Below, in pieces: positions 1-48,607 of a stretch of DNA of 64,000 nucleotides (within the stretch, counting starts at the first letter, position 1; each line of letters starts with the position of its first letter). The translations under genes and the position numbers were made by a program. The stretch is taken from positions 6,852 to 70,851 of the forward strand of contig JADHYE010000003.1 of the NCBI GenBank assembly GCA_016782605.1, given 5' to 3'. The notes below the pieces were generated by a model, which was given only the letters and a program-made list of their open reading frames with translations, made no database searches and was not told the origin of the DNA. This DNA is from Minisyncoccota bacterium (GTDB taxonomy: Bacteria > Patescibacteriota > Minisyncoccia > Minisyncoccales > RBG-13-42-11).

Positions 1-888
1 GTCAATAATGTCTGCTACTATTTCTAATGCCTGGGCAATGGGCAAACCTCCGGAAATTAAAGTTGAAAGGTTTTCAGCAAAACGGTTGATAAAAATCATT
101 TTGAACAAAGGGCTGAACAAAGGTAACTTGAGCAAAATATTATCAAAAAACCTTCTCCCTTTTTCAGTGCGGTAATATCTCAGGCCAAAAATCACTAAAA
201 AAACAAATATCAGCAAGATCGCTAATCCGAACTGCCTGAAAAATTCAGCTATCGCTATGATAATCTGCGTTATCAAAGGCAGGGTTTCTCCACTAGCTTC
301 CAAAACTTCAGAAAGATGGGGAATAACGAAAAACACCAACAAGGCTAAAATCAGGAAAACGACAAAAAGAACCAGAAGAGGATAAAGCATGGCGCCCTTT
401 ACCCTGCCTAATAAATGATATTCCCTTTCCAAATGCTCTGCTAAATAATCCAAGACTTCGGAAAGCTTTCCGGAAACCTCGCCTGATTTTATCATGGCAA
501 TATAAAAGGAAGAGAAAATGTTGGGATAATTAGACAAAGCGCCAGAAAAAGAGCTGCCGCCTTCCACATCATCCGATATCTTTAAAATCTTTTCTTTGAA
601 CTCAAAACTCTGTGACTGGGAAGAAAGAACTCTCAGGGATTCAACCAAAGGCACCCTGGATCTGAACATAATGGACAGCTGCCGGGAAAACAAAACTACG
701 TCTTTTTGGGAAATTTTCTCAAAAAGCTTTATCCTAGTAGCATAAAAAGGCTGGACCGCTTCTTCCAGAAAAGTGACGTATAAACCGTATTTCTGCAAAA
801 GGTTGATTGCCCCCTCTTTTGAGGAAGCTTCAACCTGGCCAGCTCTAATTTCGCCTGTTTTAGTGCGGACTTGATAGTTGAATTTCAC
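1..888 (-). CDS. pilC: T4P platform protein PilC/GspF family, 5' part (3' end off-window), GTG start
   Basis: Manual minus-strand translation gives (M)KFNYQVRTKTGEIRAGQVEASSKEGAINLLQKYGLYVTFLEE ... FINRFAENLSTLISGGLPIAQALEIVADIID. The frame opens after TAA 907-909 and the only start candidate is GTG 888-886. Confidence 0.85.
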   Translation of the reverse strand, partial: MKFNYQVRTKTGEIRAGQVEASSKEGAINLLQKYGLYVTFLEEAVQPFYATRIKLFEKISQKDVVLFSRQLSIMFRSRVPLVESLRVLSSQSQSFEFKEKILKISDDVEGGSSFSGALSNYPNIFSSFYIAMIKSGEVSGKLSEVLDYLAEHLEREYHLLGRVKGAMLYPLLVLFVVFLILALLVFFVIPHLSEVLEASGETLPLITQIIIAIAEFFRQFGLAILLIFVFLVIFGLRYYRTEKGRRFFDNILLKLPLFSPLFKMIFINRFAENLSTLISGGLPIAQALEIVADIID

Positions 889-1021
889 CCCGTTAGAAGT
901 CTGTCTTTATATGATTAAGACAATCAATTTAAACAGACCTTTATTTATTTGTTATACCCCATTATTGCAGAACAGAAAAAATTTAAATTTAAATTTTTTC
1001 TCTCCAAGACTTCTAACGGGG
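888..1021 (-). mobile_element. 134-bp non-coding TIR element, copy 1 (MITE-like), between pilT stop and pilC start
   Basis: TIRs are CCCCGTTAGAAGTCT (888-902) and AGACTTCTAACGGGG (1007-1021). Direct TTCA flanks lie at 884-887 and 1022-1025. A near-identical copy lies at 25322-25454. Confidence 0.8.
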
Positions 1022-1029
1022 TTCATAAA

Positions 1030-8205: not shown

Positions 8206-8457
8206 TTAGCTTAAATAATTTCTTAAAATTTTCTTTAAACTTCTTAATCCCCATCCGGATTTCAAATATAATTCTCTGTTCTTTGCGTCCTTTTGACTCA
8301 GGAACGCTTCATAAAATATAAGTTTATATGGACGAAATGGTTTTGTCGCAACGCTTTTCCCATCATTATGTTCCTTGAATCTCTTTTTTAAATCAGTCGT
8401 ATAACCGATATACAAAGATTTATTTTTTAGACTTTGAAGAATATAAACATAATACAT
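8206..8457 (-). CDS. GIY-YIG nuclease-domain protein (small stand-alone)
   Basis: MYYVYILQSLKNKSLYIGYTTDLKKRFKEHN...; shows the GIY..YIG..R..E..N pattern. Confidence 0.85.
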   Translation of the reverse strand: MYYVYILQSLKNKSLYIGYTTDLKKRFKEHNDGKSVATKPFRPYKLIFYEAFLSQKDAKNRELYLKSGWGLRSLKKILRNYLS

Positions 8458-8540
8458 ATTGAAGGCGAAACGTAATAAATTTGCAAAGCAAATTTAAACG
8501 TTTCAGCAACGTAAAAATTTCTCTGAAATTTTGTACGTTG
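8458..8540 (-). repeat. conserved double-hairpin spacer between tRNA-Ser and GIY-YIG, copy 1
   Basis: Nearly identical to 12595-12676. Contains hairpins CAACGTA..TACGTTG and GAAACGTTTAAATTTGC/GCAAATTT..CGTTTC. Confidence 0.85.
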
Positions 8541-8624
8541 CGGAGGGGGTGGGATTCGAACCCACGAGTCCTTGCGGACGTCGGTTTTCAAAACCGATGG
8601 AATAAGCCGCTATCCGACCCCTCC
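8541..8624 (-). tRNA. tRNA-Ser(TGA)
   Basis: Hand-folded cloverleaf: acceptor GGAGGGG/CCCCTCC, loop TTTGAAA, long variable arm GTCC-GCAA-GGAC and T-arm GTGGG-TTCGAAT-CCCAC. Confidence 0.9.
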
Positions 8625-12390: not shown

Positions 12391-12594
12391 CTACCCCTTA
12401 ATTTGTCTTTCTCGCGCCAATGCTTCTTTTTGTGTTGGATATTCTTCTTTGTAAATAATCTTCGCTGCATTATGGCTACTAGTATAATGTCCTCCTTTTT
12501 TATTCTTATGTTTTAAAAACCTTCTTTCTATATTATTAGTAACGCCAGTATAAATACTATTATCGTCACAAAGAAGAAGGTAGAGATAATACAT
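12391..12594 (-). CDS. GIY-YIG nuclease-domain protein (second, divergent copy)
   Basis: MYYLYLLLCDDNSIYTGVTNNIERRFLKHKN... I chose ATG 12594 because it is homologous to the start of 8206-8457; the longer tracked ORF runs into the hairpin spacer. Confidence 0.8.
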   Translation of the reverse strand: MYYLYLLLCDDNSIYTGVTNNIERRFLKHKNKKGGHYTSSHNAAKIIYKEEYPTQKEALARERQIKG

Positions 12595-12676
12595 ATTGAA
12601 AGCGAAACGTTTAAATTTGCAAAGCAAATTTAAACGTTTCAGCAACGTAAAAATTTCTCTGAAATTTTGTACGTTG
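12595..12676 (-). repeat. conserved double-hairpin spacer between tRNA-Ser and GIY-YIG, copy 2
   Basis: Near-identical to 8458-8540. Contains the perfect 17-bp palindrome GAAACGTTTAAATTTGC/GCAAATTTAAACGTTTC. Confidence 0.85.
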
Positions 12677-12764
12677 CGGAGGAGGTGGGACTCGAACCCA
12701 CGGACGGCGTTTTAAACCGTCAGAGATTAGCAATCTCCTGCAATAGCCACTATGCGACTCCTCC
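12677..12764 (-). tRNA. tRNA-Ser(GCT)
   Basis: Acceptor GGAGGAG/CTCCTCC, loop TTGCTAA, long variable arm and T-arm GTGGG-TTCGAGT-CCCAC. Confidence 0.9.
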
Positions 12765-22838: not shown

Positions 22839-25322
22839 TTATGTGCAGGTTACTGAGGCAACTTTGTCACCTTGTTCCAGCCTTATTAATCTTACTCCCT
22901 GGGCTGAACGGGAGAGCTTTGGAATTTGGGAAATATTAGTCCTGATAACCTGTCCTTTTTGCGAAATGACGATCAAATCCTCTTCTTCCGGACCGATAAC
23001 TCTGGAAGCGATAATATTGCCTGTTTTCGGATTTACGTTTCCGGTTTTGATTCCAGACCCGCCCCTGCCCTGAGTTTTGTATTCTTTAACGTCGGTTCTT
23101 TTGCCAAATCCGTTTTCCGAAATAATCAGCAAATAGTTCTGCGTTTTTTCTTTCTGCTCCTGGGAAGCGATTACGTCTACAGCCACTACTTCGTCTCCCT
23201 TTCTAAGCCTTATCCCTTTGATGCCGGAGGCAGTCCTGCCCATTGCTCTGATCTCCTTTTCTTGGAAACAAATGGACTGGCCTTTTTTGGTAACGAGCAG
23301 TATCTTGTCCTGGCCGGTGGTCTTCTGGACGTTCTTGAGCTCGTCTCCCTTTTTCAAAGAAATGGCGATCAATCCTGACTTCCTGATATTTTCAAAGTCC
23401 TCCAAAGGAGTTTTCTTGATTATACCATTCTTGGTAGCCATTATTAAATATTTTATGCCCTGTTCCTGGTCCAATTTACTGATCGTTCTAAGGCATAATA
23501 TCTTGTCCTGGGGAGTGATTTCAAGAAAATTCAAAAGGCCCCTGCCCCTGGCCACTCTCTGGCCTTCCGGTATTTCGTAAACCTGGGTGCAGAAAACTTT
23601 CCCAGAATCAGTGAAAAAGAGCAGAGAATCGTGGGTTTGGGCTGCCAAGAAATGTTCTACTACGTCGTCCTGAAGAGTTTTCATGCCCATAATTCCCTTG
23701 CCGCCCCTTTTCTGGATTTTGTAGGTTCTCGGATTGATTCTTTTAATGTATCCTCCCTGGGTCAGGGTGATTATCGTTTCTTCCTGAGGAATTAAATCTT
23801 CCTCGGCAATTTCTCCTATTTTCTGGCTGTGCACCTTTGTCCTTCTTTCGTCCCCGAAATTATCCTTGACCTCTTTTATTTCTTTCTTAACAACTGATTT
23901 TATCTTTTGGGGACTCTTTAGGATTTCAATAAGCTCTTTGATTTTGAGTTTTAATTCTTTTAATTCGTCCTCAATCTTCTTTCTCTCCAGTTTGGCTAAA
24001 GCAGAAAGCTTAGTTTCCAAAATAGCGTTTGCCTGGATCTTTGTCAGTTTAAATCTTTTTATTAAATTCTTTTCTGCATCTTCCCTGTTGGCAGAATTCT
24101 TAATGGTCTTAATCACCTCATCAATATTGGCCAGGCACTTGTGCAAGCCTTCTAAAATATGGGCTCTTTCTTTAGCTTTTTCCAGGTCATGCTTTATCCT
24201 TCTGGTGATTACCTGAATGCGATGGCTGATGAAATAACTGAGCATCTCAGCCAAACTCAAAACTCTCGGCTGGATTTCATCTACCAAAGCCAGCATGTTC
24301 AAGTGAAACGTTTTTTGGAGGTCAGTGAATTTGTAAAGCCTGTTAAGAACCTTCTGGGGATAAGCGTCTCGCGAAAGCTCAATAACAATCCTCATTCCTT
24401 CTTTATCAGATTCGTCCCTGATGTCTTTTATGCCTTCTATCTTCTTTTCCTGAACCAAGGCAGCAAATTGTTCAATTAGAGTTGATTTTTGCACCTGGTA
24501 GGGAATTTCTGTAATGATGATGCGCTGCCTGCCTGTTTTTTCCTGTTCCATTACCTCTGCTTTTCCCCTGGCAACAATTGGCCCCTTGCCCTGGGAATAA
24601 GCCTCAATTATCCCTTTCTGGTCAAAAATTATACCGCCTGTCGGGAAATCAGGTCCCTGGATAAACTTAAAGAGTTCCTCAGTATCTGCTTTCGGTTTTT
24701 CAATCAAATAAATCAAAGCATCGCAAACTTCTGATAAGTTATGGGTGAGGATATTGGTTGCCATACCAACAGCAATACCCAAAGAACCGTTCAATAGAAG
24801 CTGGGGAACGGGCGAAGGCAAAACAGTCGGCTCTTTTCTCGTTCCGTCAAAGTTTTCAACGAAATTAACCGTATCTTTCTCAATGTCTTTTAGCATTTCC
24901 TCACCAATTTTTGACAGACGGCATTCAGTGTACCGCATGGCAGCCGGCGGATCGTTGTCAATGGAACCGAAATTGCCCTGGCCGTTAATCAAGGGATATC
25001 TCAAAGAAAAATCCTGAGCCATTCTTGCTAAAGCATCATAAAGAGCCATATCTCCATGAGGATGATAGCGTCCCAAGCAGCTTCCGACAACCGTAGCTGA
25101 TTTCCTAAACTTGGCATTGTGTCTCAGTCCTTCTTCCAGGGTCGTATACAGAATGCGCCGATGAACAGGTTTTAAGCCATCTCTGACATCAGGCAAAGCC
25201 CTAGAAACAATAACTGACATGGCATAGTTAATATAAGACTCCCTCATCTCTTCAGTTATTTCCCGAGGCTTGATAAGGCCGATTTTGCTGTTTTCAGTTT
25301 TTAAATTATTGTTCTTCTTCAC
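22839..25322 (-). CDS. gyrA: DNA gyrase subunit A, GTG start
   Basis: [27 protein letters not shown], active-site region AAMRYTE and C-terminal beta-pinwheel repeats. The GTG start is formed at the TIR element boundary. Confidence 0.95.
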
Positions 25323-25454
25323 CCCGTTAGAAGTCTGTCTTTATATGATTAAAACAATCAATTTAAACAGACCTTTGTTTATTGATTATATTCCCGTTGA
25401 TATCTCGCAGAAAAAATGTATTTAAATTTTTTCTGCCAAAGACTTCTAACGGGG
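25322..25454 (-). mobile_element. 133-bp non-coding TIR element, copy 2, between a small ORF and the gyrA start
   Basis: TIRs at 25322-25336 and 25440-25454, with direct TTCA at 25318-25321 and 25455-25458. The gene-proximal ~62 nt differ from copy 1 at 2 positions. Confidence 0.8.
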
Positions 25455-25469
25455 TTCATAATTAATGTC

Positions 25470-48348: not shown

Positions 48349-48414
48349 TATTATATTAGTATACCACACTAGAAAATTGACCAAAAGACTAAGTTCTACT
48401 AGAATGGGAATGAA

Positions 48415-48594
48415 CGGGACATAGTGTAACGGTAGCACGAATCCTTCTTGCCCCGTTAGAAATAACGGAGAGTAGTGTAATGGTAGCACGAGTCCTTTGG
48501 GAGGATTTAGTTCGGGTTCGAATCCCGCCTCTCCGAAAGAATTTCTAACGGGGTGAAGGAGGATTTAGTTCCAGTTCAAATCTGGATGCCCCGA
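48415..48594 (+). other. interrupted Pro-like tRNA gene (outer) carrying a 100-nt insert in its anticodon arm
   Basis: The 5' part is CGGGACA-TA-GTGT..GCAC-G-AATCC (48415-48444). The 3' part is GGATT-TAGT-TCCAG-TTCAAAT-CTGGA-TGCCCCG-A (48561-48594). The body closely matches the inner tRNA-Pro. Confidence 0.6.
48466..48536 (+). tRNA. tRNA-Pro(TGG), nested between 13-bp inverted repeats
   Basis: Acceptor CGGAGAG/CTCTCCG (C1:G72, A73), loop TTTGGGA. Flanked by CCCCGTTAGAAAT (48451-48463) and ATTTCTAACGGGG (48541-48553). Confidence 0.85.
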
Positions 48595-48607
48595 CTTATC
48601 GAACTTT

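Follow-up and report, generated by a model that had tools for sequence, protein, structure and literature searches.

The 64,000-nucleotide (nt) stretch analysed here (the window), from contig JADHYE010000003.1 of the Minisyncoccota bacterium assembly GCA_016782605.1, contains two copies of a short element with terminal inverted repeats (TIRs), each located on the start codon of a gene. Copy 2 lies at the start of gyrA, and copy 1 at the start of a T2SSF/PilC-like gene (pilC below) that follows the gene of a PilT-like ATPase (Table 1). An initial annotation, made from the letters alone, had given the TIRs and the TTCA/TGAA duplications of both copies, the GTG start of gyrA at 25322 and the same position relative to the start codon of a second gene, and direct reading confirmed all of these. 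CCCCGTTAGAAGTCT is located at 25322-25336 with its exact reverse complement at 25440-25454, and the corresponding pair of copy 1 at 888-902 and 1007-1021. TTCA on the plus strand, which is TGAA on the gene strand, stands on both sides of both copies. With commas marking the element boundaries, copy 2 reads on the gene strand ATTAATTATGAA, CCCCGTTAGAAGTCT ... AGACTTCTAACGGGG, TGAAGAAGAAC; copy 1 reads TAGTTTATGAA, ends identical to those of copy 2, TGAAATTCAAC. The 15-mer with up to three mismatches occurs seven times in the window against 1.4 expected, a count reached in 0 of 100 shuffles.

Table 1. Positions of the element copies, their parts and the associated genes in the window (strand is that on which the feature is read)
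Feature	Position	Strand	Remarks
Copy 2, miniature element of 133 bp on the gyrA start codon	25322..25454	-	No counterpart at the orthologous site of L123 and L121
Copy 2, gene-distal TIR CCCCGTTAGAAGTCT (minus-strand reading)	25440..25454	-	Exact match; first 11 nt family-wide
Copy 2, gene-proximal TIR AGACTTCTAACGGGG	25322..25336	-	Final G (25322) is base 1 of the gyrA GTG
Copy 2, upstream TGAA duplication	25455..25458	-	With 25459 contains the orphaned ancestral ATG (25457-25459), from the empty-site alignment
Copy 2, downstream TGAA duplication	25318..25321	-	TG (25320-25321) plus G25322 form the new GTG
gyrA, 827 amino acids (aa), GTG start	22839..25322	-	N-terminus MKKNN unchanged; homologs annotated as DNA gyrase subunit A, PF00521 and PF03989
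Leader open reading frame (ORF) from the orphaned ATG, MNPVRSLWQKKFKYIFSARYQREYNQ followed by stop	25379..25459	-	Spans the distal repeat and the hairpin; stop 57 nt upstream of the GTG
A/T-rich hairpin CAGAAAAAAT...ATTTTTTCTG adjoining the distal repeat	25408..25435	-	Kept in 19 copies
Internal box AACGGGA-ATATAAT	25385..25399	-	Like a third copy of the end motif, (T)AACGGGG then TATAA (alignment)
Promoter-like TTTAAA (25362-67), N16, TATAAA (25340-45)	25340..25367	-	Small palindrome within the spacer
Copy 1, 134 bp, on the start codon of the T2SSF/PilC-like gene	888..1021	-	PilT-like ATPase stop 3 nt before
Copy 1, downstream TGAA duplication	884..887	-	G888 plus TG form the GTG start, used by the gene caller in L271
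Copy 1, upstream TGAA duplication	1022..1025	-	Orphaned ATG at 1024-1026
Third member, 103 bp, ends CCCCGTTAGAAAT / ATTTCTAACGGGG, cargo tRNA-Pro(TGG)	48451..48553	+	Inside the anticodon loop of another tRNA-like gene

The two window copies can be aligned end to end. The A/T hairpins (974-1001 in copy 1, 25408-25435 in copy 2) and the TTTAAA-N16-TATAAA arrangement on the gene strand are present as initially described. The gene-proximal part is nearly the same in both copies (34 of 35 positions), but the proposed asymmetry between a conserved and a divergent half was not seen: the differences cluster in the ~16 nt that separate the hairpin from the AACGGG box (6 of 16 identical), and the hairpin (26/30) and the middle (17/21) are largely kept. 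The only ORFs inside the copies are short leader ORFs opened by the host ATG, of 26 codons in copy 2 and 24 codons in copy 1, which end 57 and 64 nt before the GTG.

The gyrA start regions of orthologs were aligned after GyrA homologs had been collected and their contigs fetched. The site is empty in L123, a strain whose GyrA is 99% identical, and in L121, a species at 93%, and reads GGACATTAATTATGAAGAAGAACAATAATTTAAAAAC without interruption, with a single TGAA; the empty-site sequence of the 99% identical strain is ATTAATTATGAAGAAGAAC. These sequences are exactly the window sequence minus the element and minus one TGAA, which bears out the pre-insertion site ATTAATT-ATGAAGAAGAACAAT reconstructed in the initial annotation. 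Because the empty sites match, the ATG is ancestral at gyrA, the repeated TGAA is a true duplication, and close strains differ in whether they have the insertion. The gyrA copy is a recent insertion. The element landed on the TGAA inside the ATGAA of gyrA and pilC, the duplication leaving the old ATG upstream. Since the last base of the element is G, the downstream TGAA becomes GTGAA, and the earlier proposal that the element supplies a start codon holds in this form: the G of the new GTG is its contribution, and the gyrA empty sites show the ancestral ATGAA. The GyrA protein is unchanged after insertion and its first in-frame start is now GTG; an in-frame TAA 18 nt upstream makes this GTG the earliest possible start. 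The part of the interpretation that concerns the mobile element and the start codon is proven. Having a length below 300 bp, no ORF for a mobilising enzyme, TIRs, a duplication, an empty site and dispersed copies, the window copies are putative miniature inverted-repeat transposable elements (MITEs), with the longer ORF-bearing units described below as candidate partners. In these gene-dense genomes, insertions would survive by rebuilding a start codon.

For copy 1 and the tRNA-borne copy, look-ups with the exact proteins gave solely contigs carrying the insertions and no empty site; all contigs with an identical upstream PilT protein carry copy 1. Gene calling at the rebuilt start is inconsistent. 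One gene caller chose the GTG as the PilC-like start, and the start was placed at GTG in one contig and 90 nt downstream in another. As a separate observation, gyrA of the element-free strain (L123 1679-5535) is called as two pieces with a faint LAGLIDADG match between them, and many GyrA homologs are 1225-1300 aa long with intein/LAGLIDADG domains (PF14528, PF14890). Therefore, gyrA hosts a second type of selfish insert in this lineage.

The window copies are part of a very widespread family, recognised by its inverted terminal pair CCCCGTTAGAA...TTCTAACGGGG together with flanks that form a 4-bp duplication of the T-N-N-A/G type. A scan of a genome collection for the shared 11-nt ends placed 82-112 nt apart found at least 120 loci, in Patescibacteria of many classes, Omnitrophota, Planctomycetota, Thermodesulfobacteriota/Syntrophia, Nitrospirae, Bdellovibrionales and others, and metagenomes contain the family at at least 120 loci. 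The ends alone are common to the family. The interiors form unrelated subfamilies, and the smallest forms are bare palindromes of 23-34 bp. The window copies belong to a subfamily with 19 members in more than 12 Patescibacteria genomes, all of which share the A/T hairpin, an AACGGGG-TATAA box in the interior and a palindrome on the side of the gene; the leader ORF begins with MNPVRS in 12 of these 19 copies. The short-element set consisted of the genome-scan matches listed and the window (n = 135), and among these matches 91 elements have identical 4-bp flanks (TAAA 32, TGAA 29, TTGA 9, TATG 6 and others). Within the window-type subfamily both flanks change in step (TGAA, TGGA, TATG), as true duplications do. 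One metagenome contig holds at least six family elements in ~5 kb (L174 1966-6531), a possible hotspot or array.

A plasmid search for similar DNA gave no match. Besides tRNAs, Rfam showed nothing at the gathering threshold in the window and nothing on the element at a permissive threshold. In the literature searched by sequence and topic these ends are not described, and the paper on the Ssn nucleases, compared below, was alone close; the mobility, end repeats, duplications and start-codon capture of the family appear to be undescribed. Most likely, the window copies are non-autonomous passengers of the family that are tolerated through start-codon rebuilding.

Insertion at start codons is a family-wide trait. 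Among the matches listed, 41 of the 135 short elements have an ORF of at least 80 codons that begins exactly at the element end. These junctions are mostly TGAA preceded by A on one side and by GGGG on the other, which produces GTG, with TGGA, TGAT and TGCA also seen; at TATG and CATG junctions the ATG lies inside the duplication itself, and several elements are located on ATGA start/stop overlaps. In a stricter test, empty sites were reconstructed, a true ORF start was required, and the same tetranucleotides elsewhere in the same loci served as background. In this test 26 of 91 elements (29%) are on gene starts compared with 2.4% of the background (p ~6e-21), and for TGAA flanks only the figure is 18 of 29, both among the matches listed. 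In-gene insertions of family copies are rare.

The orientation of the elements is also fixed. The window-type subfamily faces the gene identically in 19 of 19 copies. The sister subfamily is equally one-way, but with the opposite (hairpin) end beside the gene. Two deltaproteobacterial subfamilies are intergenic, and all 17 of their copies with identical flanks (of 20) have a single orientation relative to a TAAA preceded by G; the neighbouring genes of these clusters occur in all direction combinations, whereas the orientation of the element is constant. Because identical ends cannot sense direction and selection for expression cannot explain the intergenic cases, the insertion process is oriented, the 4-nt flank travels with the element, or both. 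The fixed orientation is thus better explained by the insertion mechanism than by a directional function. A guide-like rule linking end subtype to flank was rejected, as the same end subtype is found with TGAA, TGGA and TATG.

The only ORF-bearing relatives found are units of 272-296 bp, mostly 280-286 bp, filled by one minimal GIY-YIG gene of 86-93 aa. In one locus (L042), a short copy lies 470 bp from a 282-bp unit that has identical ends and whose TGAA duplication falls on an ATGAA start. The interior of the unit is a single ORF that begins at the host ATG and translates the left end (ATG AAC CCC GTT AGA AGT = MNPVRS); its stop is a TAA within the right end, 4 nt before the rebuilt GTG, and its product matches PF01541 (GIY-YIG, E = 2e-17). 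More than 950 close homologs were found, typically of 86 aa (MWYVY...FFFAxGF) or of 93 aa with an extension encoded by the left end. Many of the homologs have an N-terminus MNPVRS/N from the left end and a C-terminal xF followed by stop from the right end. In a second C-terminal design (..KKFLTG and stop), the frame continues across the right end as far as the TGA of the duplication, where stop and start overlap in GTGA. PF01541 is the sole domain of the element GIY-YIG proteins and their catalytic residues are conserved. The structure model has a pLDDT of 92, with UPF0213, the Slx1 nuclease domain and I-TevI as the nearest folds. The family of these minimal GIY-YIG proteins comprises 5,868 cluster representatives (50% identity) at E <= 0.001.

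Six elements of this type, examined base by base, are 282-285 bp long and have the family ends with perfect duplications (TGAA, TATG, TTGA or TAAA); the right end of one (L146) differs by one base (TTTTAACGGGG). Their sites are start codons (TGAA three times, TATG once), a stop codon (TAAA) and a TTGAC motif. A metagenome scan for ends 250-275 nt apart yielded at least 121 end pairs spaced 272-296 bp. Among the matches listed, 81 of 121 pairs show GIY-YIG homology, and the remaining pairs are mostly two adjacent short elements or tRNA carriers. The following counts also refer to the matches listed. Read in the direction of the ORF, the duplications are TGAA in 14, TTGA in 6 and TATG in 5 units, with others, and the reverse type occurs only three times; the first base of the duplication is always T. 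The TTGA sites are all TTGAC(A/T), which is -35-like, TGAA is preceded by A at 13 of 14 sites, and a host ORF starts at the right junction in 31 of 71 ORF-bearing units. The 1.7 Mb of loci sampled contained no pair of ends that enclosed more than 300 bp, had a matching duplication and lacked further ends inside, nor any transposase gene bounded by the same ends; the collection scans span at most 600 bp and are therefore not exhaustive. Candidate pairs 300-6000 bp apart with a matching duplication were all neighbouring small elements.

These results lead us to regard it as fairly probable that the gyrA copy is a non-autonomous miniature of a widespread GIY-YIG-linked family, mobilised in trans and kept by rebuilding of the start, with gyrA read by read-through. 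Judged from the sequences of partners with the same ends and duplications, the GIY-YIG protein is probably the mobilising enzyme. Acting in trans, the nuclease would recognise the ends when they form a hairpin or cruciform, perhaps on single-stranded DNA (ssDNA). It would mobilise the ORF-less copies as well as the gene that encodes it, always in an oriented manner, carrying or demanding a specific 4-nt flank. By analogy, oriented insertion fits a strand-specific, hairpin-recognising enzyme, as in the related Ssn nucleases. Full-length units, in which the ORF stop is the TAA in the right end or the TGA of the duplication, would gain expression through the host ATG and let the ribosome resume on the host gene 0-4 nt past their stop. 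Translational coupling of this kind is ruled out for the window copies because 57 and 64 nt separate the leader stops from the GTG and the element lengths of 133 and 134 bp are not multiples of three, so the coupling has been lost. The mRNA for GyrA synthesis probably comes from read-through of the operon. Ribosomes that translate the 26-codon leader and pass the distal repeat might hold the 15-bp end stem open, and a weak internal promoter may contribute to gyrA expression.

Several points weigh against the trans-mobilisation of the gyrA copy by a GIY-YIG nuclease. About one third of the elements have non-identical flanks, including the recurrent pairs CTTG/TGAA and TTTA/TGAA; further recurrent unequal pairs are TTCA/TAAA, TATG/TGAA and CTTG/TTGA (e.g. 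L097, L078, L109; window 48451-48553). Shorter duplications, inversion between copies or assembly chimeras are possible causes, and some of the unequal flanks are compatible with duplications of 2-3 bp (TATG and TGAA in TATGAA). With collection scans reaching at most 600 bp, a larger transposase-encoding partner may exist outside the 1.7 Mb sampled. The 64-kb window has no GIY-YIG gene with family ends, and its two GIY-YIG genes have other flanks. We know of no DNA-joining route for a hydrolytic nuclease of 86 aa, and host ligation or repair would be needed. Finally, an outward promoter would give the same orientation in the window-type copies, 13 of 19 of which have the -10-like hexamer at a constant spacing to the element end.

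A bolder form of the proposal, which we put at somewhat short of an even chance, holds that the ~282-bp units are autonomous transposons with the 86-aa GIY-YIG nuclease as their sole protein. They would recognise the hairpin of their own ends, insert in an oriented manner at T-N-N-A in start codons, stop codons and -35 boxes, capture the host start and allow a GTG restart 0-4 nt on; in the gyrA and pilC copies we would see non-autonomous descendants with exchanged cargo. If this is true, the ~282-bp units would be the smallest known self-mobilising DNA elements, with a chemistry (hydrolytic cut, host joining) outside the DDE, HUH, serine and tyrosine classes, and the tRNA-carrying copies would show that the system can move host genes. 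Even the ordinary reading provides a clean natural case of a mobile element on the start codon of an essential gene, made harmless by the rebuilding through its last base. For the family, the result offers a concrete, testable role for thousands of uncharacterised minimal bacterial GIY-YIG proteins and points to a compact design in which a selfish gene shares the translation signals of its host. An insertion unit that is very small, oriented and defined by its sequence, and that brings promoter-like DNA or tRNA genes with it, is relevant to mobile-element biology, to the annotation of Patescibacteria and possibly to tools.

The constant element-to-gene orientation in 19 of 19 copies would also be expected of a mobile expression module, which the initial annotation had proposed in the form of a terminator plus promoter. 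The hairpin would stop upstream transcription, TTTAAA-N16-TATAAA would drive a transcript, the end would give the GTG, and the orientation would be kept by expression. The -10-like hexamer of the 13 copies fits such a module as TATAA[AGT] ending 17-18 nt before the element end. Both window insertions put 133-134 bp between a gene and its operon signals, and gyrA is essential; judged from the folds, a transcript begun inside the element would lack the distal repeat and leave the GUG unpaired. However, the native promoters seen in the window, upstream of tRNA genes (TTGACx-N17-TAnnAT), all have T at the last position, whereas the -10-like hexamer of the element has no such T and was not called by the consensus scan. 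Nor is the geometry conserved in the relatives. The -35-like hexamer is kept in 12 of 19 copies and the -10-like hexamer in 13; the spacer is mostly 14 nt, with 16 in three, and the -10-like hexamer is absent from six copies and is TATAAT in one. A sigma-70 promoter would be expected to keep, from copy to copy, a spacer of 17 +/- 1 nt and a -10 hexamer with A as its second and T as its sixth base; a strict scan found no site whose position is conserved. The proposed terminator did not hold up either. The hairpin stem has almost no G-C pairs and no U tract, the next sequence being GCGAGAUAUC, and it was not called as a terminator. In the sister subfamily it is the hairpin end that adjoins the gene, and the orientation is fixed also where no gene start is involved. 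Conservation of the hairpin may equally serve folding at the DNA level. The regulatory module is weakly supported, and we consider the expression-module explanation unlikely.

Inverted ends together with a fixed-length duplication are the hallmark of DDE transposition, and the window copies might be ordinary MITEs of a classical DDE transposon, for example an IS1380/piggyBac-like one with CC... ends and a 4-bp duplication. The GIY-YIG gene would then be one cargo among several, like the tRNAs, and the cargo is indeed variable, with tRNAs in L040, L117, L151 and the window. The elements of the piggyBac/IS1380 group have CCC... ends and a 4-bp T..A duplication, leave a cleanly restored site where they are absent, and encode a DDE/DDD transposase of several hundred residues. 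The piggyBac ends, CCCTAGAAAG, and the TTAA target resemble CCCCGTTAGAAG and TNNA of the family. The likeness thus extends to the ends, the duplication and the clean empty site, but a DDE/DDD transposase or any transposase-sized element with the family ends was not found in the 1.7 Mb sampled. In addition, two thirds of the 272-296 bp pairs among the matches listed have GIY-YIG homology, and the gene fills the unit and takes its stop from the right end or the duplication. The orientation relative to the non-palindromic 4-nt flank is fixed within subfamilies, which is not predicted for identical ends and a symmetric transposase. A DDE origin is therefore quite improbable.

Control at the RNA level was also considered, in which pairing of the 15-bp ends in the mRNA would mask the GUG and so determine how much gyrA is translated, or, as a variant, the element would be removed from the RNA like an intron. 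The pairing of the TIRs in RNA that the initial annotation suggested is predicted to be very stable, with read-through folds of -48.6 and -52.8 kcal/mol (z ~-6.7) and a stem up to the G of GUG. Paired positions co-vary, 6 of the 11 hairpin pairs being changed on both sides among the 19 copies, and one relative lies inside a tRNA anticodon loop. However, covariation of ends and palindromes is equally expected under recognition at the DNA level. No Rfam family matches the element, and the same ends flank duplications and empty sites, which are DNA events. The rarity of ORF-internal insertions argues against splicing, the sequences of the mRNA copies do not allow a bulge-helix-bulge, and ARAGORN calls no tRNA of the intron type. 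We regard control at the RNA level as very improbable. An archaeal-type or self-splicing intron was rejected on the lack of a bulge-helix-bulge, the failure of the ARAGORN intron mode to find the outer tRNA and the rarity of in-gene insertions, and an integron attC site on direct reading of the core-like GTTAGAA / TTCTAAC, which are in reverse order relative to attC.

With the trans-mobilised family preferred, the general form of the elements can be compared with known systems. Correia (Neisseria), ERIC, RUP and BOX elements are 100-160 bp long with inverted ends, duplications and many copies, often near genes, co-transcribed and able to form long hairpins, and some of them make promoters; Correia elements have a TA duplication and 26-bp ends. 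The classical MITEs such as Correia and ERIC share the general form with the family but differ in the partner enzyme and the start-codon behaviour. We know of no MITE family with a GIY-YIG gene as its ORF-bearing relative, and of no MITE that sits systematically on start codons rebuilt by its last base. In REP/REPIN-RAYT and IS200/IS605 systems, HUH tyrosine transposases rejoin the DNA without a duplication, each end has its own subterminal hairpin and insertion is oriented by 4-5 nt. Hairpin repeats, a small ssDNA nuclease (as proposed here) and oriented insertion beside a short motif are the points of likeness; however, the flanks of the family co-vary as duplications and its ends have no separate hairpins. 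The free-standing GIY-YIG homing endonuclease genes (phage T4 Seg, I-TevI) resemble the family as selfish nuclease genes located between host genes or at their edges and co-expressed with them. Unlike the family, homing endonucleases have a separate DNA-binding domain and spread to single sites by repair involving homologous chromosomes, and they have no inverted ends, duplication or ORF-less derivatives.

By analogy, the closest described system is that of the Ssn nucleases. These are site- and strand-specific GIY-YIG ssDNA nucleases that cut a few nt upstream of a hairpin (Chenal et al., Nat Commun 2025, PMC11893778). The Ssn genes are bracketed by inverted-repeat hairpins (NTS/SRM) that also occur in many genomic copies, mostly extragenic, and the authors noted that the repeat-gene-repeat arrangement resembles an insertion sequence, with mobility only hypothesised (PMC11893778). 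A single-domain GIY-YIG protein of ~90 aa, a gene between repeats, dispersed repeats and, presumably, directional recognition would be common to both systems. The likeness lies in the size, the single domain and the repeat architecture; the solved structures nearest to the family nuclease are UPF0213 and Slx1. The architecture differs in that each side of an Ssn gene is flanked by a full hairpin of 20-50 nt (ATTCCCGCG...CGCGGGAAT), whereas in the family the gene or cargo lies between the two arms of one palindrome. On direct reading, the flanks CCCCGTTAGAA / TTCTAACGGGG do not match the SRM motif (HGTCWY..YYVSBRH..WNVSBRG..RNCYNB). Terminal duplications, empty sites, start-codon capture and cargo derivatives are not described for Ssn, and the family has all four. 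The family looks like a variant of the GIY-YIG-plus-repeat theme with direct evidence of mobility in its sequences. The strain-level insertion polymorphism with duplications goes beyond the mobility hypothesis for Ssn.

The third window member carries a tRNA gene as cargo and interrupts another one. The outer tRNA-like gene (48415-48596, plus strand) has good acceptor, D and T arms and a strong promoter, TTGACC-N17-TAGAAT (~48375-48403). The flanks of this member are CTTG/TGAA, with no 4-bp duplication. Reconstruction of the split tRNA was rejected as a guide to the original site, since deletion of the insert with 0-7 and 0-9 flanking bases always gives a cloverleaf call; no deletion matching a duplication restores the canonical 7-nt loop. 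Elsewhere, tRNA cargo is found in L040 (Ala), L117 (Ser) and L151.

The two GIY-YIG genes of the window (8209-8454 and 12397-12597, both on the minus strand) are 50% and 32% identical to the inverted-end type. Both are located directly 3' of tRNA-Ser genes (8540-8624; 12676-12764) and are preceded by a common two-hairpin sequence of ~75 nt (CAACGTACAAAATTTCAGAGAAATTTTTACGTTG CTGAAACGTTTAAATTTGCTTTGCAAATTT...) without CCCCGTTAGAA ends. They are possibly an Ssn/SRM-like pair, the second member of which seems to be truncated. A Y1 (IS200/IS605-type) transposase gene occurs ~1 kb from a GIY-YIG element in L132 (1725-2171), a single case that is probably a coincidence. In L134-L143 (e.g. L134 863-1437), a tandem GIY-YIG pair lies between the target gene (Lcl_C) of a diversity-generating retroelement and its bAvd/reverse-transcriptase genes, and the first gene of the pair has the family ends with a TAAA duplication on the upstream stop codon. 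In L111 (7155-7373), a partial tRNA copy, which extends up to the T loop, and a complete tRNA gene enclose a GIY-YIG gene of a different subtype, an arrangement that suggests tRNA-directed insertion by other branches of the family.

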